64,000 nucleotides of DNA. Origin: an uncultured Streptomyces sp. (GTDB lineage Bacteria > Actinomycetota > Actinomycetes > Streptomycetales > Streptomycetaceae). Below, in pieces: positions 1,470-47,186 of the stretch. The stretch's first letter is position 1. Every line of letters begins with the position of its first letter. The translations under genes and the position numbers were made by a program. The notes under the pieces were generated by a model. The model was not told the origin of the DNA. It saw only the letters and a list, made by a program, of their open reading frames with translations, and made no database searches. Location of the stretch: assembly GCA_965653385.1 (NCBI GenBank), contig CBFGZZ010000002.1, positions 6,997-70,996 of the forward strand. Direction: 5' to 3'.

Positions 1470-1543
<74 letters not shown>

Positions 1544-18684: not shown

Positions 18685-18699
18685 GGCGAATTCCTCTCC

Positions 18700-18850
18700 G
18701 GCGCCTGCGAGGTGAGCTGTCGGGTGCGGGCTGGAGATGCCCGGCCGCGTGGGGACGCGACTTGACCCCAAGCCTGTTCCGGAGACCGGAACAGGCGGTT
18801 GTACCTGTGGGTCCCCCGCTCCTGCCGTGCACGGGTGAGTTTGCGCGGGA
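18700..18850 (-). promoter_or_regulatory. c-di-AMP riboswitch (ydaO/yuaA class) in the 5' leader of the LysM-M23 peptidase gene
   Basis: The minus strand contains CGCGCAAACTC ... GGAGCGGGGGACCCA ... TTGGGGTCAAGTC ... CCCGCACCCGACAGCTCACCTCGCAGGCG. These match my memory of the conserved ydaO blocks (GAGCGGGGGACCCA, GGGGUGAAUCC, CCGxCAGCUAACCUCGUAAGCG). The element ends immediately before the SD GGAGAGGAA. Confidence 0.65.
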
Positions 18851-31452: not shown

Positions 31453-32589
31453 TCATCTCTTCCGTACGACGACGAAGTCGGCGAGCGCAGTGAACCGCGC
31501 CCGCACCCGGTCGGGCATGTCGACCGCGTCGAGCGCCTCGACGGCGACGGCGTGCTGACGACGTGCCTCGTCGGCGGTCCACTCACGGCCGCCCGCCTCC
31601 TCGATGAGGGCGGCGCGGGCCGCGAACTCCTCCTCGGAGAAGTTCTCGAAGTCGCTGCTCTTGGCGTCGGCTGCGAGCATCTCGCCGAGCCGCTCCGAGG
31701 CTGAGCCGCCCGCGGCGAGCGCGGCCACGACCGGCAGGGACTTCTTGCGCTGGCGCAGGTCGCTCCAGGTCTGCTTGCCGGTGGAGACCGGGTCGCCCCA
31801 GATGCCGAGCAGGTCGTCGACGGCCTGGAAGGCGAGGCCCAGGTGGTAGCCGTACTTCTCCAGGGTGTCGGCGGTACGGTCGTCGGCGCCGCCGAGCACC
31901 GCGCCGATGGAGCTGGCGCAGGCGAGCAGGGCGCCGGTCTTGTTGCCCTCCATCTCCAGGCACTCCTCGACGCTGACGCGGTCGCGGTGTTCGTAGGAGA
32001 TGTCCTGCGCCTGACCGTCGATCAGGGCGCGGGTGGCGGTGGTCAGGCGGCGGGTGGCGCGGCCGGCCTCGACGGTGCCGAGTTCCAGCAGGACCTCGTT
32101 GGCGAGGGCGAACAGGGCGTCGCCGACGAGGATGGCCTGGGCGGGGCCGTGCACCTTCCACACCGTGTCGCGGTGGCGGCGCTGTTCGTCGCCGTCCATC
32201 AGGTCGTCGTGGAGCAGGGAGAAGTTGTGGACCAGTTCGACGGCGACGGCGCCGGGGATGCCGACCTCGGGCGAGGCGCCGGTGACCTCGGCGGAGAGCA
32301 CCGCCAGGGCGGGGCGCACGGCCTTGCCGCCGTCGCCGGCCGTGGGCTTGCCGTCGGCGTCGATCCAGCCGAAGTGGTAGGCGGAAACGGTGTCCATGGG
32401 AGCGGCCAGGCGGTCGATCGCCGCCCGCAGTACCGGTGTGGCCAGGGTCCTCCCGCGCTCCAGGAGCGCGGCCACGTCCACCGCGGTCTCTCGAGCGGCC
32501 TTCTCGGCCGGGGGCACAGTGGGCACGGTCTCTCCTCTTGTTGCGGTACCGGGGGTGCGGGGGCCTGCCGCCGGGCGCTGGTTCAGCAT
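31453..32589 (-). CDS. Polyprenyl diphosphate synthase (FPP-synthase type) of the hopanoid cluster
   Basis: First Asp-rich motif LLHDDLMDGD and second FQAVDDLLG. The track ORF extends to 33216, but the ATG at 32589 shares one base with the hpnE stop (TGATG). Confidence 0.9.
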   Translation of the reverse strand: MLNQRPAAGPRTPGTATRGETVPTVPPAEKAARETAVDVAALLERGRTLATPVLRAAIDRLAAPMDTVSAYHFGWIDADGKPTAGDGGKAVRPALAVLSAEVTGASPEVGIPGAVAVELVHNFSLLHDDLMDGDEQRRHRDTVWKVHGPAQAILVGDALFALANEVLLELGTVEAGRATRRLTTATRALIDGQAQDISYEHRDRVSVEECLEMEGNKTGALLACASSIGAVLGGADDRTADTLEKYGYHLGLAFQAVDDLLGIWGDPVSTGKQTWSDLRQRKKSLPVVAALAAGGSASERLGEMLAADAKSSDFENFSEEEFAARAALIEEAGGREWTADEARRQHAVAVEALDAVDMPDRVRARFTALADFVVVRKR

Positions 32590-36332: not shown

Positions 36333-36363
36333 GGGCCCCGCCGGAGCAGTTCCGGCGGGGCCC
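36333..36363 (-). terminator. 13-bp GC hairpin terminating the ABC-exporter/polyol-phosphate operon
   Basis: GGGCCCCGCCGGA-gcagt-TCCGGCGGGGCCC, 40 nt downstream of the ATPase stop (36404). No U-tract follows, as is common in high-GC actinobacteria. Confidence 0.55.
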
Positions 36364-36403: not shown

Positions 36404-37186
36404 CTACTTGCCCGTGAACTTCTCGTACTCCTTGAGGACCTCGTCCGTCGGTCCGTCCATGCGCAGCTCGCCGCGTTCCAGCCACAGGACGCGGTTGCAG
36501 GTGTCGCGGATCGACTTGTTGTTGTGACTGACGAGGAACACCGTGCCGGCTTCCTTGCGCAGCTCACGGATGCGGTCCTCGGAGCGCTTCTGGAACTTGC
36601 GGTCGCCGGTGGCCAGCGCCTCGTCGATCATGAGGACGTCGTGGTCCTTGGCGGCGGCGATGGAGAAGCGCAGGCGGGCCGCCATGCCGGAGGAGTAGGT
36701 GCGCATGGGGAGGGTGATGAAGTCGCCCTTCTCGTTGATGCCGGAGAAGTCGACGATCTCCTGGTAGCGCTCCTTGATCTGCTCGCGGGACATGCCCATG
36801 GCGAGCCCGCCCAATATGACGTTCCGCTCGCCCGTGAGGTCGTTCATCAGGGCCGCGTTCACACCGAGCAGCGAGGGCTGGCCGTCGGTGTAGACCTTGC
36901 CCTTCTCCGCCGGGAGCAGGCCGGCGATGGCACGCAGCAGCGTGGACTTGCCGGAGCCGTTGGAGCCGATCAGGCCGATGGCCTCGCCCCGGTAGGCGAC
37001 GAAGGAGACACCCCGGACGGCGTGCACCTTGCGCACGCCCCGCTCCTCGCCGCGCTTGAGGATGCGGCTCAGGGCGGCGGTGGCGCTGCCCTTGCCGGTC
37101 TTGGCGCCGTTGACGCGGTAGACGATGTGCAGCTCGTCCGCGATGACGGTGGGGATGCGCTCCGCGTCCTGCTCGGGGTCAGCCAC
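36404..37186 (-). CDS. ABC transporter ATP-binding protein (TagH/KpsT-like polysaccharide/polyol-phosphate exporter)
   Basis: Walker A GSNGSGKST, signature YSSGMAARL, Walker B VLMIDEAL. The GTG start overlaps the permease stop by 8 nt. Confidence 0.9.
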   Translation of the reverse strand: MADPEQDAERIPTVIADELHIVYRVNGAKTGKGSATAALSRILKRGEERGVRKVHAVRGVSFVAYRGEAIGLIGSNGSGKSTLLRAIAGLLPAEKGKVYTDGQPSLLGVNAALMNDLTGERNVILGGLAMGMSREQIKERYQEIVDFSGINEKGDFITLPMRTYSSGMAARLRFSIAAAKDHDVLMIDEALATGDRKFQKRSEDRIRELRKEAGTVFLVSHNNKSIRDTCNRVLWLERGELRMDGPTDEVLKEYEKFTGK

Positions 37187-38114
37187 GGCCGTACCTCTCT
37201 TCCGCCTTCCAGAAGTAGACGAAGCCGGCTCCGCCCGCCAGCACCGCCCAGCCCAGCGCGAAGGCCCACACGTGCGCGGGCAGGAACGAGGAATCGTATC
37301 CGTCGATCATCGCGAAACGGACCAGGTCCATATAGATCGCCGCGGGGTTCCACTGCAGGACGTCGGTGATCCAGCCCGGCCAGTTCTTGTCCGCGAGCAT
37401 CGCCGGGATGCTGAACATCACGCCGGACGCGTACATCCAGGTACGCAGGAGGAACGGCATCAGCTGGGCCAGGTCGGGCGTCTTGCTGCCCATGCGGGCG
37501 AAGATCAGAGCGAGCCCCGAGTTGAAGACGAACTGCAGCGTCAGCGCGGGCACGACGAGCAGCCAGGACAGGTCGGGGAAGCTGCCGAAGGCCATCATGA
37601 TCACGACGAGCACGCCCATGGAGTAGAGCAGCTGCTGGAGCTGCTGGAGCGCGAACGACAGCGGCAGCGAGGCCCGGGGGAAGTGCAGTGCGCGTACCAG
37701 GCCCAGGTTGCCCGAGATGGCACGCACACCCGCGAGCACCGAGCTCTGGGTGAACGTGAAGACGAACACGCCGGTCACCAGGAACGGCACGTAGATGTCG
37801 CCCGGGATGCCCTCCCGGGCGCCCAGCAGCATGCCGAAGATGAAGAAGTACACGGCCGCGTTCAGCAGCGGGGTGGCCACCTGCCAGAGCTGGCCGAGCT
37901 TCGCCTGGCTGTACTGGGCGGTCAGCTTCGCCCGCGAGAACGCGAGGATGAAGTGCCGCCGGTCCCAGAGCTGGCGGACGTACTCGAACAGCGAGGGGCG
38001 GGCGCCGCTCACGGTCAGCCCGTGCTTGGCGGCCAGCTGGGCCGCCGTGAGTCCCTCGTCGGGCGACGGAGGCGCGCTCACCGCGACTCCGCCGTCGTGC
38101 GTTGTCTCACTCAC
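37179..38114 (-). CDS. ABC-2 type transporter permease (TagG-like)
   Basis: Six predicted TM helices and the ABC-2 pattern (FSRAKLTAQYSQAKLGQLWQVATPLL). GTG start. Confidence 0.85.
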   Translation of the reverse strand: MSETTHDGGVAVSAPPSPDEGLTAAQLAAKHGLTVSGARPSLFEYVRQLWDRRHFILAFSRAKLTAQYSQAKLGQLWQVATPLLNAAVYFFIFGMLLGAREGIPGDIYVPFLVTGVFVFTFTQSSVLAGVRAISGNLGLVRALHFPRASLPLSFALQQLQQLLYSMGVLVVIMMAFGSFPDLSWLLVVPALTLQFVFNSGLALIFARMGSKTPDLAQLMPFLLRTWMYASGVMFSIPAMLADKNWPGWITDVLQWNPAAIYMDLVRFAMIDGYDSSFLPAHVWAFALGWAVLAGGAGFVYFWKAEERYGRG

Positions 38115-38211
38115 CAGTGGAAACTTTCGTCTTCGAGATGCGCAGCCTGTGCGGGCTTGGCATGAACCTGGGGCCCGGATGGGGCCCGGGGGCTCTTCAG
38201 GACCGAGCTTG

Positions 38212-39084
38212 TCAGATGACGGGAGGTCGGCCCAGTCGAGTCAGCCGCCACACCGTACGCCACTTCATGGGCCGGCGGGGACCGCACGAGGTGGTCCACC
38301 CTTCCCGGAATCCGCCGAACCATGCCTTGAGGGCGGGGCGGGACGGGCGGCGGAGGAGGGTCAGCAGCATCCACACGCCCAGATAGACCGGGACGAGCGG
38401 GGCCGGAAGGTTTCGCCGGGCCAGCCAGACGCGGTTGCGGGCGACCATGCGGTGGTAGACCGCGTGCCGCGAGGGCGCGGTCGTCGGGTGGTACAGCACC
38501 ATGTCGGACCGGTAGTCGATCAGCCAGCCCGCGTCGAGGGCCCGCCATGCCAGGTCGGTTTCCTCATGGGCGTAGAAGAATGCGTCCGGCAGCCCGCCGA
38601 CTTCGGCGAAGACCTGGGTCCGGACGGCGTTGGCGCCACCCAGGAACGTGGTGACCCGCGAGGAACGCATCGGGTCGGAGGCCCGCAGCCGGGGCACATG
38701 GCGGCGCTGGGTGACTCCGGTCTCCGGGTCGGCGATGCGGAAGCTGACGATCCCGAGCTTCGGGTCGGCCTCGAAGGCCTCGCGGCACAGCTCGGCGGTG
38801 TCGTGGTGGGCGAGCAGGCCGTCGTCGTCGAGGAAGAGCAGGATGTCGACGTCACGACCGCTGGGCCCGAAGGCCTCGATGCCGACGTTACGGCCACCGG
38901 GGATGCCGAGGTTCTCGGGCAGTTCGATGGTGCGCACGCCCTCGGGGACGTCCGGCACCGGGGAGCCGTTGCCGACCACGACGACCTCGACGCGGTCGCC
39001 GTCCTGCTTGGCGACCGAGTCGAGGAGGGCACGCAGTTCGTCGGGGCGGTTGCCCATCGTGATGATGACCGCGCCGACCTTCAT
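38212..39084 (-). CDS. Glycosyltransferase family 2
   Basis: Contains MKVGAVIITMGNRPDEL...LPENLGIPGGRN...FLDDDG. The track ORF extends to 39624, but the ATG at 39084 lies 5 nt after the upstream stop. Confidence 0.85.
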   Translation of the reverse strand: MKVGAVIITMGNRPDELRALLDSVAKQDGDRVEVVVVGNGSPVPDVPEGVRTIELPENLGIPGGRNVGIEAFGPSGRDVDILLFLDDDGLLAHHDTAELCREAFEADPKLGIVSFRIADPETGVTQRRHVPRLRASDPMRSSRVTTFLGGANAVRTQVFAEVGGLPDAFFYAHEETDLAWRALDAGWLIDYRSDMVLYHPTTAPSRHAVYHRMVARNRVWLARRNLPAPLVPVYLGVWMLLTLLRRPSRPALKAWFGGFREGWTTSCGPRRPMKWRTVWRLTRLGRPPVI

Positions 39085-39089
39085 CCCGT

Positions 39090-39869
39090 TCACTTCAGCC
39101 TGCTGGAGGCGAGGATGGACACGAGGTGCAGCAGGGTCTGCAGCAGCGCGATGCCGGCGAGTACGGCGACGCCGAGCCGGGAGAAGAACAGGTCGCCGCG
39201 GGCCTGGTCGGCGATCGCGAGGACCACGATCAGCAGCGAGGCCTCGATGCCGAGGATCAGACGGTGGAACTTGAGCATGGCGGCGGCCCTGCGGGCCAGG
39301 GCCATGCCGGAGGAGCGCATCTCGGACGCCGCCTCCTGGACCGGGGGCTTGCCGGCCTGGTGGCGGGCGACGCCGACCAGGTCGGTCTCGGCCTTGATCA
39401 GGATCGCACCGAGCGCGGCCAGCGTGCCGAGGAAGGCCCACAACCAGTCGATACGGCCGCTGCCCCACAGGTCGGCGGCGCGCAGCCCGAAGCCGACGAG
39501 CACGGCGGCGTCGGTGAGATAGGCGCCGACGCGGTCGAGGTAGACGCCGTTCAGCGAGTACTGCTTCTTCCAGCGGGCGATCTCGCCGTCGACGCAGTCC
39601 AGCAGCAGATACATCTGGACGCACACCACGCCCAGCACGGCGCCCGGGATCCCCGGCACCAGAAGGGCCGGGGCCGCGAGCACACCGAAAACGGTCATCA
39701 GGTACGTGAGCTGGTTGGGCGTGACCCTGGTGTTCACCAGGTAGCGGTCGACCCGCAGGGACACCTCACGCATGTAGAGGCGTCCCATCCAGTGCTCACC
39801 GCTGCGCCGGTCCTTGACCCCTGCGGGGTGGACGACCGGACGGAGTTCAGCTACCGATGGCCTTGACAT
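39090..39869 (-). CDS. CDP-alcohol phosphatidyltransferase family membrane protein (variant signature)
   Basis: The motif DCVDGEIAR-x8-G-x3-D-x3-A has Ala in place of the last conserved Asp. Polytopic. The ATG at 39869 overlaps the upstream gene by 23 nt; an alternative start lies at 39788. Confidence 0.75.
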   Translation of the reverse strand: MSRPSVAELRPVVHPAGVKDRRSGEHWMGRLYMREVSLRVDRYLVNTRVTPNQLTYLMTVFGVLAAPALLVPGIPGAVLGVVCVQMYLLLDCVDGEIARWKKQYSLNGVYLDRVGAYLTDAAVLVGFGLRAADLWGSGRIDWLWAFLGTLAALGAILIKAETDLVGVARHQAGKPPVQEAASEMRSSGMALARRAAAMLKFHRLILGIEASLLIVVLAIADQARGDLFFSRLGVAVLAGIALLQTLLHLVSILASSRLK

Positions 39870-40908
39870 AGTCGGCGTAGATGTCCTTGATCTGGTCGGT
39901 TGTCAGGTCGAGGTGTTCGAGGATCGTGTAGCGGCCGGGCCGGGTCTGCGGAGCGAACTCCACCGCGCGGACGAACTCGTCGTCCGTGAAGCCGATCTCC
40001 CTGGGCAGTACCGGCAGCCCGTGCCGACGCAGCACCTCGGCCATGAAGGCCGACTCCTCGTGCGCCCCGCGCAGGTACATGGCGAAAGCCGCACCCAGTC
40101 CGCACTGCTCGCCGTGGGCGGCGGCACGCTTGGGGAACAGCAGGTCGAAGGCGTGGTTGATCTCGTGGCAGGCGCCGGAGGACGGACGGGAGTCGCCCGA
40201 CACCGACATGGCGATACCGCTGAGCACCAGCGCCTCGGCGAGCACCTGGAGGAAGCCGGTGTCCCCTATACCTCCGGGGTGCCGGAGCACCGCCTCACCG
40301 GCCTGGCGGGCGATGGCGGCGGCGAGGCCGTCGATCTTCTCGCCGTTGACGCGGTTGGCGAGCTCCCAGTCCGCGATCGCCGAGATATTGGAGATCGCGT
40401 CGCCGATGCCGGCCCGTACGAAGCGGGCCGGGGCCTCGTGGATGATGTCGAGGTCGATGACGACGGCGATCGGGTTCGGCACGCCGTACGAGCCGCGGCC
40501 CGCGTCGTTGTCGAGGGTGGCGACCGGCGAGCACAGGCCGTCGTGCGCGAGGTTCGTCGGTACGGCGACCAGGGGCAGGCCGACGCGTGCCGCGGCGAAC
40601 TTGGCGCAGTCGATGATCTTCCCGCCGCCGAGGCCGACGACGGCGTCGTAGTGGCCGGCCTTTATGTCACTGGCCAGCCGCACCGCGTCGTCGAGCGTGC
40701 CGCCGCCGACCTCGTACCAGCTGGCGCCGGGCAGCACGGGAGCGAGCCGCTCCCTCAGCCGGGCACCGGAACCGTTGCTGACCGCGACGGCCAGCTTGCC
40801 GGAGTGCGAGATGCGCTCGTCGGCGAGCACACCGCCCAGGTCGTCGAGGGCGCCCGCGCGGATGTCGACGACGACGGGCGAGGGGATCAGCCGGGTCAGT
40901 ACAGGCAT
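39847..40908 (-). CDS. Fe-ADH-superfamily enzyme, sn-glycerol-1-phosphate dehydrogenase-like (EgsA/AraM type)
   Basis: Contains GLGGGKIIDCAKF, VPTNLAHDGLCSP and SSGACHEINHAFD blocks. Trimmed to the ATG at 40908, a 13-nt overlap with the upstream gene. The family is confident; the G1P-specific call rests on motif memory. Confidence 0.6.
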   Translation of the reverse strand: MPVLTRLIPSPVVVDIRAGALDDLGGVLADERISHSGKLAVAVSNGSGARLRERLAPVLPGASWYEVGGGTLDDAVRLASDIKAGHYDAVVGLGGGKIIDCAKFAAARVGLPLVAVPTNLAHDGLCSPVATLDNDAGRGSYGVPNPIAVVIDLDIIHEAPARFVRAGIGDAISNISAIADWELANRVNGEKIDGLAAAIARQAGEAVLRHPGGIGDTGFLQVLAEALVLSGIAMSVSGDSRPSSGACHEINHAFDLLFPKRAAAHGEQCGLGAAFAMYLRGAHEESAFMAEVLRRHGLPVLPREIGFTDDEFVRAVEFAPQTRPGRYTILEHLDLTTDQIKDIYADYVKAIGS

Positions 40909-41648
40909 GCGATCTCCCGTCCGCGAGCGAGATCGTCGTGGTTGTCGATCTCCACCCACTTGACGTCGCCGATCGGCGCCACGTCGATGCGGAAGCCGCG
41001 GTCCACCAGCTCCTGGTAGCCGTGCTCGTAGAACTGCTGCGGGTCGGTCTCCCAGACCGCCTTCAGGGCGTCGGCCAGCTCGGGGGCGGCGTCTCCCTCG
41101 ATGAGGGTGACGCCGATGTACTCGCCGGTGGCCTCGGCGGGATCCATCAGCTTGGTGATCTTCGTCATGCCCTTCTCGGGGTCGACGACGACCTTCATCT
41201 CCTCGTCGGCCAGGCTCTTCACCGTGTCCAGCGCGAGGATGATCTTCTTGCCGTCGCCGCGGGCGGCGAGCAGCGTCTTCTCGACGGAGACCGGGTGCAC
41301 GGTGTCGCCGTTGGCGAGGATCACACCGTCCTTGAGGGCGTCACGGCCGCACCACAGGGAGTAGGCGTTGTTCCACTCCTCGGCCTTGTCGTTGTCGATG
41401 AGGGTGAGCTTCAGGCCGTACTTCGCCTCCAGCTCCTCCTTGCGCGCGTACACGGCTTCCTTGCGGTAGCCGACGATGATCGCGACCTCGGTCAGACCGA
41501 TCTCGGCGAAGTTCCCGAGGGTCAGATCGAGAACCGTGGGTTCCCCCTCTATACCCGCGGGCCCCACTGGCACCAGAGCCTTCGGAAGGCTGTCTGTGTA
41601 GGGGCGCAGACGCCGTCCGGCGCCGGCCGCCAGCACGAGGCCGATCAT
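40896..41648 (-). CDS. Nucleotidyltransferase (NTP_transferase; sugar/polyol-phosphate cytidylyl/nucleotidylyl-transferase)
   Basis: N-terminus MIGLVLAAGAGRRLRPYTDSLPKALVPV. 250 aa. Its ATG overlaps the upstream stop (ATGA at 41645-41648). Confidence 0.8.
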   Translation of the reverse strand: MIGLVLAAGAGRRLRPYTDSLPKALVPVGPAGIEGEPTVLDLTLGNFAEIGLTEVAIIVGYRKEAVYARKEELEAKYGLKLTLIDNDKAEEWNNAYSLWCGRDALKDGVILANGDTVHPVSVEKTLLAARGDGKKIILALDTVKSLADEEMKVVVDPEKGMTKITKLMDPAEATGEYIGVTLIEGDAAPELADALKAVWETDPQQFYEHGYQELVDRGFRIDVAPIGDVKWVEIDNHDDLARGREIACLY

Positions 41649-43453
41649 GCGGGTTCTCCTTCATCGTGTACGGCGGGCGCCCCGGAGGACACCCAGAAGC
41701 GGATGCTCTCGACGAGCACCACCAGGGCCACGGCCACGGCGATCACCGTGAACGCGACCGTGAACTGTGAGGCGGAGAGCACCGCGGCGAGGACGGTGAC
41801 GAGCAGCGTCCGTCCTTCGTGCCCCCCGATGGCGCGCACCAGCCAGGCCGGGGGCGCTCCGGCGTTGCCGCGGATGCGGTACACCGTGTCGTAGTGATGG
41901 TAGGCGACGGCCCCCACCAGCCCGAAAGCCGCAGGAAGGGCTCCGTTCACGTCCGCTTTGACCGCGAGGACGAGGACGGTGCCGTACTCGGCGGCGCGGA
42001 AGACCGGGGGGACCAGCCAGTCGAGGGCGCCCTTGAGGGGCAGGGCGACGGCGGCGGCCGAGGTGAGCACGTAGAGGACGGCTGCCGCGACCGGCAACGC
42101 GCTGCCGTACGGCTCCAGTGCCGCCGCGAGGACCAGCAGGGCCGCGCCGGGCAGGGCGACGAGGACGCGGGCGCCGAACGGCGGCTTGGCGGGCAGCTTG
42201 CGCAGCGCTCGTGCCAACGCCTCGGCGAGCGGCCCGCTGTCCGCCAGGTCCGCCAGCGCCTGCGCCGCCCGGTCCGTCCGCCGGGCCTTGCGGGTCAGCG
42301 AGCGCAGTACGCGGCCCGCCGTGGTGTACGTCGCGGCGAAGGCGCAGCCGATGAGCAGCGCGTAGAAGGTGATCCGAGGGGTGGTGACCGCCGTGAGCAC
42401 CGCGATCATCGCCCAGCGCTCGCCGATCGGCAGAACGATCATCCGGCGCACCCACACCGTCCAGCCGACGCTGTCGAGCTTGTCGGAGAGGGCCGCGGTG
42501 GGGCTGGTGTTGGCGGTGGCGTCGTGGTTGGCCTCGTTGAAGGAGAAGTCCACGACATGCCGGCAGGTCTGGAGGACCATCGCGCCGAGGGCGAGGGCCC
42601 AGACGTCGTCGCCGCCCCGGGCCGCGCCGAGGGCGAGGCCGGCGTAGTAGGCGTACTCCTTGGCCCGGTCGAAGGTGGCGTCCAGCCAGGCGCCGAGCGT
42701 GGAGTACTGCAGGGAGTAGCGGGCGAGCTGGCCGTCGGTGCAGTCCAGGACGAACGAGAAGATCAGCAGGAGCCCGGCCGCGACGAACCCGCCCCGGGTG
42801 CCGGTGGCCGCGCAGCCCGCCGCGATGAGCGCGGTGATCAGGGAGGCGGTGGTGACCTGGTTGGGGGTCAGGCCACGGCGGGCGCACCAGCGGGCGATGT
42901 AGCGGGAGTAGGGGCTGACGCAATAGGTCGTGAAGAAGCCGTCACGGGACTTCACGGCCGACTTCAGGCGTACGGCCTCGTCGTCGACGGTCAGGACGGC
43001 CTGCCGTGCCTCGTTGCGGGCCTGCGGGTCGGCCGGGACGGCGGCGACCAGGCTGCCGAGCTCGGGGCGGTGGACGTCGGTGCCCTCGTCGTCGAGCGCG
43101 GTGACGATGCGGTCGGCGAGGTTGTCGACCGCCACGGCCGTGCCGCCGCCCGCGGAGTTCTCGCGCGCCATCGCGCGGGTCAGGGCGTGGCGGCCGGCCG
43201 GCTGGGCCGTCACGGCGCCGGGGATCGCGGCGAGCGGGAAGCGGGGGTCGGTCAGGCCGAGGCGCAGCGCGTGCCGGTGGCCGACGAAGCGGGCGTCGAC
43301 GACGGCGACCCGCTGGTCGCCGGGTACCTGGGCGAGGAGCGTCTCGGCGTCGGCGGCGTCGGATGCGACCCGCACGTCATAGCCGAGGGACCGCAGATCG
43401 CCCTCGATCGACGATCCGGGGACCGGCTGACCGGTGAGGATGGCGGTCGACAA
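41645..43453 (-). CDS. Large CDP-alcohol phosphatidyltransferase-domain membrane protein (soluble N-domain + CDP-OH transferase + C-terminal polytopic DUF5941-like region)
   Basis: Canonical signature DCTDGQLAR-x8-G-x3-D-x3-D at about residues 237-262. About 170 N-terminal residues are non-hydrophobic, and a long hydrophobic C-terminal half follows. The apparent start is TTG at 43453. Confidence 0.75.
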   Translation of the reverse strand: MSTAILTGQPVPGSSIEGDLRSLGYDVRVASDAADAETLLAQVPGDQRVAVVDARFVGHRHALRLGLTDPRFPLAAIPGAVTAQPAGRHALTRAMARENSAGGGTAVAVDNLADRIVTALDDEGTDVHRPELGSLVAAVPADPQARNEARQAVLTVDDEAVRLKSAVKSRDGFFTTYCVSPYSRYIARWCARRGLTPNQVTTASLITALIAAGCAATGTRGGFVAAGLLLIFSFVLDCTDGQLARYSLQYSTLGAWLDATFDRAKEYAYYAGLALGAARGGDDVWALALGAMVLQTCRHVVDFSFNEANHDATANTSPTAALSDKLDSVGWTVWVRRMIVLPIGERWAMIAVLTAVTTPRITFYALLIGCAFAATYTTAGRVLRSLTRKARRTDRAAQALADLADSGPLAEALARALRKLPAKPPFGARVLVALPGAALLVLAAALEPYGSALPVAAAVLYVLTSAAAVALPLKGALDWLVPPVFRAAEYGTVLVLAVKADVNGALPAAFGLVGAVAYHHYDTVYRIRGNAGAPPAWLVRAIGGHEGRTLLVTVLAAVLSASQFTVAFTVIAVAVALVVLVESIRFWVSSGAPAVHDEGEPA

Positions 43454-43733: not shown

Positions 43734-44717
43734 ATGACATGGCTGATCACAGGCGGAGCCGGATACATCGGAGCACATGTGGCGCGGGCCATGACCGACG
43801 CCGGGGAGCGGGTCCTCGTACTGGACGACCTCTCGGCCGGGCGGCCCGCTCGGCTCCCCGCTCATGTTCCCCTCGTCGAGGGCTCGTCGCTCGACGGTGA
43901 CCTGCTGAAGCGGGTGTTCGCCGAGCACACGGTGACCGGTGTGGTGCATCTCGCGGCGCGCAAGCAGGTCGGCGAGTCCGTGGCGGAGCCGACGCGCTAC
44001 TACCGGGAGAACGTGGGCGGTCTGGCCACGCTCCTGGAAGCGGTCGCCGAGGCGGGGATCAAGCGGTTCCTGTTCTCGTCGTCCGCCGCGGTCTACGGCA
44101 ACCCGGATGTGGATCTCATCACGGAGGACACCCCGTGCGCGCCGGTGAACCCGTACGGCGAGACCAAGCTCGCCGGGGAGTGGCTGGTGCGGGCGGCGGG
44201 CCAGGCATACGGGATCTCCACCGTCTGCCTGCGCTACTTCAACGTCGCGGGCGCCGCCTCGCCCGAGCTGGCCGACACCGGCGTCTTCAACATCGTCCCC
44301 ATGGTCTTCGACCGGCTGACCCGCGACGAGGCCCCGCGGATCTTCGGCGACGACTATCCGACGCCGGACGGCACCTGCGTGCGTGACTACATCCATGTCG
44401 CCGACCTCGCCGAGGCGCACCTGGCGGCGGCCCGGCGGTTGACGGCACCCGACGCGAGCGGCGATCTGACCGTCAACATCGGCCGCGGCGAGGGCGTCTC
44501 CGTACGCGAGCTGATCACCGTCATCGGCGAGGTCACCGGCGACGCGCGCCCCGCCGTCGTCGAGGCCCGGCGCCCCGGCGACGCCCCGCGCGCGGTCGCC
44601 TCGGCCGCACTCGCCGCCGGGAAGCTCGGCTGGACGGCCCGGCGCGGGGTACGCGAGATGGTCGAGTCGGCATGGCAGGGGTGGCTGCTGCACCACGGCG
44701 GCCGGCCGGGCAACTGA
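43734..44717 (+). CDS. galE: UDP-glucose 4-epimerase
   Basis: Contains WLITGGAGYIGAH, YGETK (YxxxK) and VCLRYFNVAG. 327 aa. Confidence 0.9.
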   Translation: MTWLITGGAGYIGAHVARAMTDAGERVLVLDDLSAGRPARLPAHVPLVEGSSLDGDLLKRVFAEHTVTGVVHLAARKQVGESVAEPTRYYRENVGGLATLLEAVAEAGIKRFLFSSSAAVYGNPDVDLITEDTPCAPVNPYGETKLAGEWLVRAAGQAYGISTVCLRYFNVAGAASPELADTGVFNIVPMVFDRLTRDEAPRIFGDDYPTPDGTCVRDYIHVADLAEAHLAAARRLTAPDASGDLTVNIGRGEGVSVRELITVIGEVTGDARPAVVEARRPGDAPRAVASAALAAGKLGWTARRGVREMVESAWQGWLLHHGGRPGN

Positions 44718-46640: not shown

Positions 46641-47186
46641 CTAGGGCACACGCACGGGTTTGAGCGGGACGGCGGCCCAGATCACCTTGCCGCCGCTCGC
46701 CGTGTGCTCGACGTCGCACACGCCGCCCGCCTCCCGCGTGACCTCGCGGACCAGGAGCAGCCCGCGGCCGCCGGTCCGGCCGTGGTCGGCCTCCAGGGCG
46801 GTCGGACGGTAGGGGTGGTTGTCCTCCACCGAGACCCGTAGCCACTCGGCGCCGACAGCGACCTCCACGGCGAGCGTCGGCGACAGCAGCGCCGCGTGCC
46901 GGACGGCGTTCGTGACCAGTTCCGACACGATCAGCAGCACTCCCTGCACCAGATCGTCCGGTACCGGCACTCCCTGGCGGTACAGCAGGTCCCGCACGGC
47001 GTGCCGGGCCTGCGGGACCGAGGCGTCGACGGCTGGGGCGGTGAACCGCCAGACGCCCTCGTACGGCAGTGGATGCGGCGGCCGCTGGACGAGCGACTCG
47101 TCCGCGCCACCTCCTGGGCGTGGGCCGGACCCGCGCCCGTGGTTCTCCATCGTCCGGTCGCCACCCTCGCGCTCGATTGTCACCAC
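46641..47186 (-). CDS. ATP-binding protein (RsbW/SpoIIAB-like anti-sigma-factor kinase fold, HATPase_c_2)
   Basis: Contains LLIVSELVTNAVRHA and GGRGLLLV motifs. The start is either GTG at 47186 (chosen) or ATG at 47150. Confidence 0.7.
   Translation of the reverse strand: MVTIEREGGDRTMENHGRGSGPRPGGGADESLVQRPPHPLPYEGVWRFTAPAVDASVPQARHAVRDLLYRQGVPVPDDLVQGVLLIVSELVTNAVRHAALLSPTLAVEVAVGAEWLRVSVEDNHPYRPTALEADHGRTGGRGLLLVREVTREAGGVCDVEHTASGGKVIWAAVPLKPVRVP

Follow-up and report, generated by a model that had tools for sequence, protein, structure and literature searches.

In the IPCT/DIPPS system of Archaeoglobus and the Thermococcales, CTP serves to activate a small alcohol phosphate, and a membrane CDP-alcohol phosphotransferase (CDP-AP) of the soluble-donor branch then forms a phosphodiester with release of CMP. 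In the wall teichoic acid (WTA) pathway of Bacillus and Staphylococcus (TagD/TagB/TagF/TagGH plus LCP ligase), a CDP-polyol donor serves assembly on a lipid carrier in the cytoplasm and the product leaves through the TagGH exporter. LtaS, which makes the lipoteichoic acid (LTA) of Firmicutes, is extracellular and takes glycerophosphate from phosphatidylglycerol. Here, a seven-gene operon of Streptomyces is compared with these and related systems. The operon lies on the minus strand of a 64,000-nt stretch of DNA from an uncultured Streptomyces sp. (GenBank assembly GCA_965653385.1, contig CBFGZZ010000002.1, positions 6,997 to 70,996), referred to below as the window, with a G+C content of about 70%. 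Its seven open reading frames span 36404-43453, and the chosen starts match the annotated orthologue lengths (gene C 353 aa, gene A 602 aa):

41645..43453, minus strand: gene A, 602 aa, PF01066 (CDP-OH_P_transf) followed by PF19365 (DUF5941)
40896..41648, minus strand: gene B, 250 aa, Pfam NTP_transferase, LicC/IPCT-type nucleotidyltransferase
39847..40908, minus strand: gene C, 353 aa, Fe-ADH_2 (PF13685, E 4e-27)
39090..39869, minus strand: gene D, 259 aa, PF01066, variant CDP-alcohol phosphotransferase
38212..39084, minus strand: gene E, 290 aa, Pfam Glycos_transf_2 with a C-terminal hydrophobic segment
37179..38114, minus strand: gene F, 311 aa, Pfam ABC2_membrane, TagG/Wzm-type permease
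36404..37186, minus strand: gene G, 260 aa, Pfam ABC_tran, TagH/Wzt-type ATPase

From comparison of these sequences, the operon is read, with a rough probability of 0.55, as one that would follow an IPCT/DIPPS-type route to build and export an envelope glycoconjugate that contains glycerophosphate and resembles teichoic acid. In this route, C would reduce dihydroxyacetone phosphate (DHAP) to sn-glycerol-1-phosphate (G1P), which B would convert with CTP to CDP-glycerol. CDP-APs at the cytoplasmic face of the membrane would then move the glycerophosphate onto a hydroxyl of a lipid-linked acceptor, releasing CMP. The catalyst of this step would be A, which is catalytically complete by its signature, and DUF5941 may be the dimer partner or the acceptor-binding half of A. 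D, which has no catalytic Asp, is probably an accessory or partner subunit in Streptomyces, and its His-bearing orthologues may be active alone. Finally, the family 2 glycosyltransferase (GT2) E would add a sugar from a UDP-sugar, and F and G (TagGH/Wzm-Wzt type) would carry the lipid-linked product outward. All substrates and their chirality, the order of steps, the anchor or acceptor and the choice between a polymer and a single addition are what we infer, and CDP-glycerol as donor, with its handedness, would follow solely from gene adjacency.

Comparison of the gene products with described families

Domains were assigned with Pfam, family contrasts were drawn with NCBIfam equivalog models and their cut-offs, and structural relatives were taken from PDB matches. 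For gene C, placement was based on contrasts between HMM scores, on published trees and on 117 representatives grouped by average linkage. The first-pass annotation of the window had read the 353-aa product as a G1P dehydrogenase (G1PDH)-like enzyme rather than a classical alcohol dehydrogenase, its neighbours as a nucleotidyltransferase, a GT2 and a TagG/TagH-like exporter, and the 602-aa product as a membrane protein with a perfect CDP-alcohol transferase signature. When the profile searches proposed there were run, every domain call was confirmed by Pfam.

Gene C scores 250 bits (E 4e-74) on the G1PDH model NF002022, which is 2.7 times the score of the next family (GldA glycerol dehydrogenase 94, glycolaldehyde reductase 69 and DHQS 26 bits), and the alignment runs end to end, with residues 16-343 on positions 16-343 of the 350 of the model. 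Its top PDB relatives are archaeal G1PDHs (4rgq, E 3e-43), which are nearer than 9h4x (8e-25), a 414-aa chain labelled "G1PDH" that may be an AraM-type enzyme. The blocks GIGD (GxGD), SRPSSGACH (SRPxSGxxH) and HGEQCG align with the G1PDH of M. jannaschii and are invariant across the actinobacterial clade of gene C; their residues are presumably the metal ligands (Asp/His/His). A search with gene C gave 3492 matches, the best 120 of which are all from Streptomyces at about 90% identity, and the dehydrogenase is a core Streptomyces gene. Among representatives at 50% identity, Actinopolymorpha, Nocardiopsis and Streptosporangiales fall into one compact actinobacterial clade, with Njordarchaeia and WOR-3 among the closest labelled outgroups. 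Orthologues are named "iron-containing alcohol dehydrogenase family protein" by NCBI and G1PDH by JGI. Streptomyces orthologues sit inside published G1PDH trees, whose authors guessed at archaeal-like lipids in Streptomyces (PMC6431249, PMC5059525). In the AraM/PcrB system of Bacillus subtilis, in which heptaprenylglyceryl phosphate is made, a bacterial member of the G1PDH family is likewise used, but the operon has no PcrB/GGGPS partner, its partners being a cytidylyltransferase and CDP-APs. As a separate observation, the 90%-identity cluster of a Nocardiopsis G1PDH-like protein (P0123) also contains 256-aa CDP-alcohol phosphatidyltransferases, likely due to gene calls that fuse the overlapping genes C and D.

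The best PDB match of gene B is the CTP:phosphocholine cytidylyltransferase LicC (1jyk, E 4e-12), followed by 4jd0 and 6pd1. Gene B aligns over its full length with the IPCT half of NF041135, and its NCBIfam matches are sugar-1-phosphate transferases mixed with IPCT, all far under their cut-offs. It is presumed to be a CTP:glycerol-1-phosphate cytidylyltransferase. The COG1213 class, to which LicC/CpgD-type enzymes belong, activates small phospho-compounds such as phosphocholine and phosphoglycerate for surface glycans or lipids (PMC12275187). The likeness ends there: the activated compound would differ, and the downstream transferases LicD and CpgA are not CDP-APs.

The product of gene A consists of a poorly conserved N-terminal cytoplasmic region (residues ~1-170), the CDP-alcohol phosphotransferase domain (~171-390) and DUF5941 (394-602), the last of which matches positions 1-208 of the 208 of PF19365 with 317 bits (E 7e-95). 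All residues of the signature DxxDGxxARx8GxxxDxxxD are present (DCTDGQLARYSLQYSTLGAWLDATFD), and the fourth signature Asp is kept in 52 A-type homologues. Orthologues of 595-615 aa are named "DUF5941 domain-containing protein", and those of S. caeruleatus and S. muensis are 97% identical to the window protein. Gene D is homologous to the CDP-AP domain of gene A (hhalign 99.6%) and is not a canonical class I member. AF2299 of Archaeoglobus fulgidus is the best PDB relative of both proteins (E 4e-8 for A, followed by IPCT/DIPPS; E 4e-13 for D, with the IPCT/DIPPS structure 4mnd among the top matches), and among CDP-APs the soluble-CDP-alcohol branch is the one that A and D resemble most closely. 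In the crystal structure of AF2299, CDP-glycerol occupies a donor pocket that is small and hydrophilic, and the N-terminal domain is cytoplasmic (PMC4634129). AF2299 differs in having the full eight-residue signature and no DUF5941 module, and no function can be transferred from it to A and D.

DUF5941 can be separated from the CDP-AP domain. Streptosporangiaceae have it as a protein of its own (about 207 aa), the gene of which is located between those of an A-type CDP-AP and B, and in Nocardiopsis it is present without an A-type CDP-AP. The occurrence of CDP-AP and DUF5941 as separate genes in Streptosporangiaceae and as a fusion in Streptomyces points to a functional link of the two parts. 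Since an invariant polar patch (HHYD..YR.R, plus DW..PP..R..EY) is retained, DUF5941 is unlikely to be a mere spacer.

Gene E has weak matches to MftF, EpsD and GlfT1, and its nearest solved relative, again by a weak match, is the PglI-type undecaprenyl-PP-glycan glucosyltransferase 9jma. Gene F scores 61 bits on galactan-export Wzm and 32 bits on KpsM; gene G reaches 187 bits with the TagH model, for which the cut-off is 320, and 159 bits with that of galactan Wzt, also below cut-off, and has no added chain-length or cap-recognition domain by Pfam.

Taken system by system, the operon would work like IPCT/DIPPS and like the WTA pathway but is a member of neither, because its scores are far under the cut-offs, the supplying enzyme is a different one and the TagD and TagF families are absent. 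With regard to IPCT/DIPPS, the two halves of NF041135 are matched by B (IPCT) and by A and D (DIPPS), but the enzymes are encoded by separate genes instead of a fusion, the supplier is G1PDH-like instead of an inositol-phosphate synthase, and the scores are 40-54 bits against a cut-off of 580. The likeness to IPCT/DIPPS drawn in the first-pass annotation is nevertheless apt, because both A and D are closest to AF2299 and IPCT/DIPPS. With the WTA pathway the operon would have in common the CDP-polyol donor, lipid-carrier assembly in the cytoplasm and a TagGH-like exporter. It differs in that the phosphodiester would come from integral-membrane CDP-APs and the glycerophosphate from DHAP via G1P; a G1P unit is the enantiomer of the sn-3 unit of WTA. 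Neither a TagD-type (COG0615) cytidylyltransferase nor TagB/TagF (Glyphos_transf) was found in the seven products (Pfam, NCBIfam) or in a fully labelled Streptosporangium locus described below (Pfam), in line with the earlier proposal that CDP-alcohol transferases stand in for a TagF-type polymerase. LtaS systems resemble the operon in that its product might also be an sn-glycerol-1-phosphate polymer on a membrane anchor; the difference from the extracellular LtaS is that the donor of the operon would be intracellular and nucleotide-activated.

Conservation and surroundings of the cassette

Gene order, gene families, conservation of the cassette and its genomic company can be read directly from the loci. 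The survey covers 80 genome loci among the matches listed, from about 20 Streptosporangiales genera and one Frankiaceae metagenome-assembled genome; the flanks of one locus, L163 (Streptosporangium becharense), were Pfam-labelled in full. Gene-neighbourhood conservation, which had been put forward as a check in the first-pass annotation, was found for the core A/DUF5941-B-C-D-E. B and C are colinear, with B directly upstream, in 80 of the 80 loci listed, D follows in 78 and E (after D) in 76, DUF5941 is present in 76, and an A-type CDP-AP is located upstream of B in most. No Thermobifida locus is among the 80, which does not imply absence from Thermobifida, the actinomycete whose LTA is best documented.

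The cassette is flanked by a Bcs1-like IspD(+SDR) gene in 74 of the 80 loci, by a second GT2 in 71 and by an LCP glycopolymer ligase in 69. In L163 the order is TagU-like LCP ligase, GT2, divergent IspD+SDR, CDP-AP, DUF5941, nucleotidyltransferase, Fe-ADH_2, variant CDP-AP and GT2, with a GT4 and an acyltransferase-3 beyond the cassette and no TagF-type domain in this, the sole fully labelled locus:

L163 6722-8125, minus strand: IspD-type cytidylyltransferase, often SDR-fused, divergent from the cassette and adjoining the LCP ligase and the second GT2

The IspD+SDR fusion is taken by us to be a Bcs1-like CDP-ribitol synthase. Because this gene stands beside the LCP ligase and the second GT2, a mixed ribitol/glycerol phosphate polymer is suggested for the Streptosporangiales genera, in which LCP ligase and CDP-ribitol synthase adjoin the cassette as a further likeness to the WTA pathway. 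The company of LCP ligase, CDP-ribitol synthase and polymer-type exporter, together with the absence of a TagF-type enzyme, argues for a product that would be anchored to the wall or the membrane and teichoic-acid-like. Moreover, since the cassette is accompanied by a GT2 and an ABC-2 exporter, and in other genomes by an LCP ligase, an exported glycoconjugate is more probable than a cytoplasmic solute. Upstream of the Nocardiopsis cassette, a gene beside an IspD-like gene (L003 4463-5236, minus strand) has by eye the N-terminus of a glycerophosphodiester phosphodiesterase.

Metagenomic and distant contigs were considered as well. Homologues of F and G are located directly 3' of the cassette on the actinobacterial-type contigs L087, L093, L094 and L109, and in Nocardiopsis TagGH-like genes precede the cassette. 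The triad of NTP-transferase, G1PDH-like enzyme and CDP-AP recurs on low-GC contigs at 30-39% identity. On L085 it stands in front of a Wzy_C protein, a GT4/initiating sugar transferase, a GNAT protein, a DegT aminotransferase and an epimerase, and on L097 it stands behind a Wzx-like flippase:

L097 9960-10715, plus strand: triad in the Wzx-type context, its CDP-AP with Gly at the position of the fourth signature Asp
L085 9138-9872, plus strand: triad in the Wzy-type context, its CDP-AP with Asp at this position

Because it is embedded in Wzy/Wzx contexts on such distant contigs, the triad is regarded as a portable module of surface-glycan clusters. L097 also carries DUF1616 genes, for which reason it may be archaeal. 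In further metagenomic cassettes of actinobacterial type (L110, L120, L121, L124, L125, L149), the D-type protein is replaced by a third CDP-AP subtype (DCADGQLARxTGQxSxAGARVDxLxD, with canonical fourth Asp), which is encoded about 300 nt downstream of the G1PDH-like gene.

In the window, the junctions of the operon were determined by a script check:

41645-41648, minus strand: A/B junction, 4-nt ATGA overlap
40896-40908, minus strand: B/C junction, 13-nt overlap
39847-39869, minus strand: C/D junction, 23-nt overlap
39085-39089, minus strand: D/E junction, 5-nt gap
38115-38211, minus strand: E/F junction, 97-nt gap, the sole sizeable intergenic gap of the run
37179-37186, minus strand: F/G junction, 8-nt overlap
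36333-36363, minus strand: hairpin, GGGCCCCGCCGGA-ACUGC-UCCGGCGGGGCCC, 13-bp GC stem, 5-nt loop, 40 nt past the stop of G
43734..44717, plus strand: galE (UDP-glucose 4-epimerase), TIGR01179 320 bits, above cut-off

The five junction figures of the first-pass annotation were each reproduced; owing to the 97-nt E/F gap, a sixth junction that had gone unmentioned there, the run is not uniformly overlapped. This gap contains many GGGCCC/CCCGGG palindromes and could be an internal promoter or processing site. A sigma-70 promoter scan gave no match, which is uninformative in a high-GC actinomycete. The GC hairpin that had been said to close the run folds strongly (-40.1 kcal/mol, z = -4.9 against shuffles), lacks a U-tract and is likely a transcript-end structure.

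Downstream of the operon in the window lie HpnC/HpnD/HpnE and a polyprenyl synthase, and on the other flank the divergent galE is followed by a CDF transporter and then idi. The location given earlier, between the hopanoid cluster and idi with galE divergent, is therefore accurate for the window, but the hopanoid adjacency is specific to Streptomyces and has no counterpart in other genera. A functional link with the hopanoid genes was considered and rejected, because hpn genes occur within 10 kb in none of the 80 loci listed. GalE is a possible supplier of sugar nucleotides, and its position beside the cassette is not conserved in the other genera of the 80 loci. For the polyprenyl synthase that borders the hopanoid cluster (31456-32499, minus strand), the top model is [quoted passage not shown], with 401 bits against a cut-off of 450, and an ordinary GGPP/FPP synthase model scores lower. 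Additionally, the window contains a c-di-AMP (ydaO/yuaA) riboswitch aptamer (18689-18847, minus strand, 56.9 bits, above the gathering score), of a kind that in Streptomyces is usually found 5' of cell-wall hydrolase genes, a tRNA gene (1470-1543, minus strand, Rfam 63.8 bits) and, just past idi, a small HATPase_c-type, anti-sigma-factor-like gene (46641-47186, minus strand), which is seen in the Pfam-labelled copy L081 6304-6813.

Weighing of the proposed route against its alternatives

Several observations weigh against a glycerophosphate glycoconjugate made by this route, the first of which concern the two membrane enzymes. Gene D, which had been annotated as a second CDP-alcohol transferase, belongs to PF01066 as claimed, but the last residue of its signature (DCVDGEIARWKKQYSLNGVYLDRVGA) is Ala, where canonical members have the fourth, catalytic Asp. 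Replacement of this residue by Asn abolishes the activity of PIP synthase (PMC4634129). Among the loci listed, relatives of gene D have His at this position in 60 and Ala in 17. Ala is found only alongside a canonical A-type enzyme (17 of 17 loci), and where no A-type enzyme is detectable the residue is always His; the correlation is only suggestive, because the loci represent few independent lineages.

The second concern is DUF5941. An AlphaFold2 model of the entire 602-aa product from a 41-sequence Streptomyces alignment (pLDDT 45) was discarded, and a model of DUF5941 was built from the window sequence with a mixed alignment (pLDDT 80.5, pTM 0.79). Its Foldseek neighbours are AF2299, RsPIPS, MtPgsA1 and DIPPS (probability 0.57-0.97, TM 0.43-0.52 over ~180-205 columns, with weak E-values of 0.2-1), all remaining structural matches having a probability below 0.15. 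DUF5941 was also considered as a duplicate of the CDP-AP domain that is detectable from sequence, and this was rejected (hhalign probability <1%). Due to the weak E-values and the blank profile-profile comparison, the model suggests only tentatively that DUF5941 is a degenerate CDP-AP-like six-helix bundle. Such a bundle would fit the dimeric state of CDP-APs as well as the additional C-terminal helices of those members that use lipid acceptors (PMC4634129).

Furthermore, LCP ligase, priming transferase and CDP-ribitol gene are all absent from the Streptomyces window, and the major wall polymers that have been reported in S. coelicolor, Kdn-teichulosonic acid and polydiglycosylphosphate, are without glycerol phosphate (PMC11481543), so that the product there would be a minor or a membrane-anchored one. 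As a speculation, a product of that kind, for example the LTA that has been reported in several LtaS-less Streptomyces, would reconcile the observations on both sides.

The alternative that survives best, although it is clearly less probable than the proposed route, is that the operon decorates a glycan made elsewhere with single glycerophosphate substituents, or supplies a linkage or capping unit, without forming a poly(glycerophosphate) chain. The occurrence of the triad in ordinary Wzy/Wzx repeat-unit clusters (L085 and L097) would be expected in that case, as would the absence of an extra chain-length or cap-recognition domain from G, and known CDP-APs perform single transfers (PMC4634129). 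On the other hand, actinobacterial loci hold two or three CDP-AP-like modules and no other candidate for a polyol-phosphate polymerase, and poly(glycerophosphate) LTA has been reported in LtaS-less Streptomyces and relatives (PMC3196553).

Two further alternatives are about equally improbable. According to one, CDP-glycerol would provide the head group of a phospholipid or glycophospholipid (with diacylglycerol or a glycolipid as acceptor), or archaeal-type lipids would be made. CDP-APs are classically phospholipid enzymes, and the head-group glycerol of phosphatidylglycerol is sn-1-linked, which counts in favour of such a pathway. Archaeal-like lipids in Streptomyces have been suggested by Coleman et al., and A resembles lipid-acceptor CDP-APs in its extra C-terminal helices (PMC4634129). 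However, no GGGPS/PcrB or DGGGPS gene is present in the operon or in the 80 flanks examined, A and D resemble the soluble-donor branch, and a glycopolymer is indicated by the company of LCP ligase, glycosyltransferases, O-acyltransferase and ABC-2 exporters of polymer type.

According to the other, the phosphodiester unit is not glycerophosphate: either C is no G1PDH and makes the phosphate of a different polyol or of a hydroxy acid, or inositol-1-phosphate or ribitol-5-phosphate is the alcohol that becomes activated. The score of gene C lies under the equivalog cut-off of NF002022 (250 against 413 bits), which also weighs against the proposed route, as does the precedent of a halophile protein annotated as G1PDH that turned out to be a glycolaldehyde reductase (PMC9700705); a CDP-ribitol-type synthase is moreover encoded in the Streptosporangiales loci. 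The end-to-end fit of the G1PDH model at 2.7 times the next family and the metal-ligand and SRPxSGxxH blocks, invariant in the clade and common to the M. jannaschii enzyme, speak against this alternative. In view of the sub-cut-off score and the mis-annotated precedent, C is no more than likely to act on DHAP with NAD(P)H and to yield G1P stereospecifically.

Least credible of all is the synthesis and export of a soluble phosphodiester that, like those of Archaeoglobus/Aquifex, would be of diglycerol-phosphate or glycerophospho-inositol type: the closest solved relatives (AF2299, IPCT/DIPPS) do come from compatible-solute producers, but GT2, polymer-type ABC-2 exporter, LCP ligase and Wzy/Wzx contexts are unexpected for a cytoplasmic osmolyte.

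Novelty and significance

Every component family and the general CDP-alcohol logic are already known, and the presence of G1PDH in Streptomyces and the synteny are in print. What is unrecorded is the combination of genes, together with the recruitment of a G1PDH-type enzyme, the paralogue without the Asp and the DUF5941 module. As the first-pass annotation had supposed, no characterised product of this gene set was found in the literature searched, nor was an experimentally characterised homologue of any operon member; the search for one gave only a synteny survey of 2026. In that survey of 929 genomes, the CDP-AP, GT2 and nucleotidyltransferase neighbours of the dehydrogenase are orphan proteins that are syntenic with crtB, tagG/H and araM, so that the operon, although part of the Streptomyces core genome, was still counted among orphan proteins in 2026 (PMC13118837).

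LTA has been reported in Streptomyces, Thermobifida and Agromyces, while actinobacteria are without clear LtaS orthologues, and for Streptomyces and relatives the route of its synthesis has been an open question since 2009 (PMC3196553); wall biogenesis of Streptomyces was still termed poorly known in 2024 (PMC11481543). In a bolder form of the proposed route, which we hold to be doubtful, the cassette would be the missing means by which actinomycetes make glycerophosphate teichoic or lipoteichoic acids independently of both LtaS and TagF. C would supply the sn-1 enantiomer. Its activation would yield CDP-sn-glycerol-1-phosphate, a mirror image of what TagD makes, and its polymerisation on a lipid anchor would fall to a polyol-phosphate polymerase of a new class, composed of a CDP-AP, the degenerate CDP-AP-like DUF5941 and the Asp-less paralogue.

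If the proposed route to an envelope glycoconjugate is true, bacterial G1PDHs would gain a physiological role beyond the "lipid divide" debate, and a third enzymatic solution for the transfer of polyol phosphates to glycans would stand beside the TagF-type and LtaS-type ones. It would also give DUF5941 its first function and explain the portable three-gene module in polysaccharide clusters of unrelated phyla. In antibiotic producers, the operon would then present a new target in the envelope and could serve glyco-engineering as a handle.

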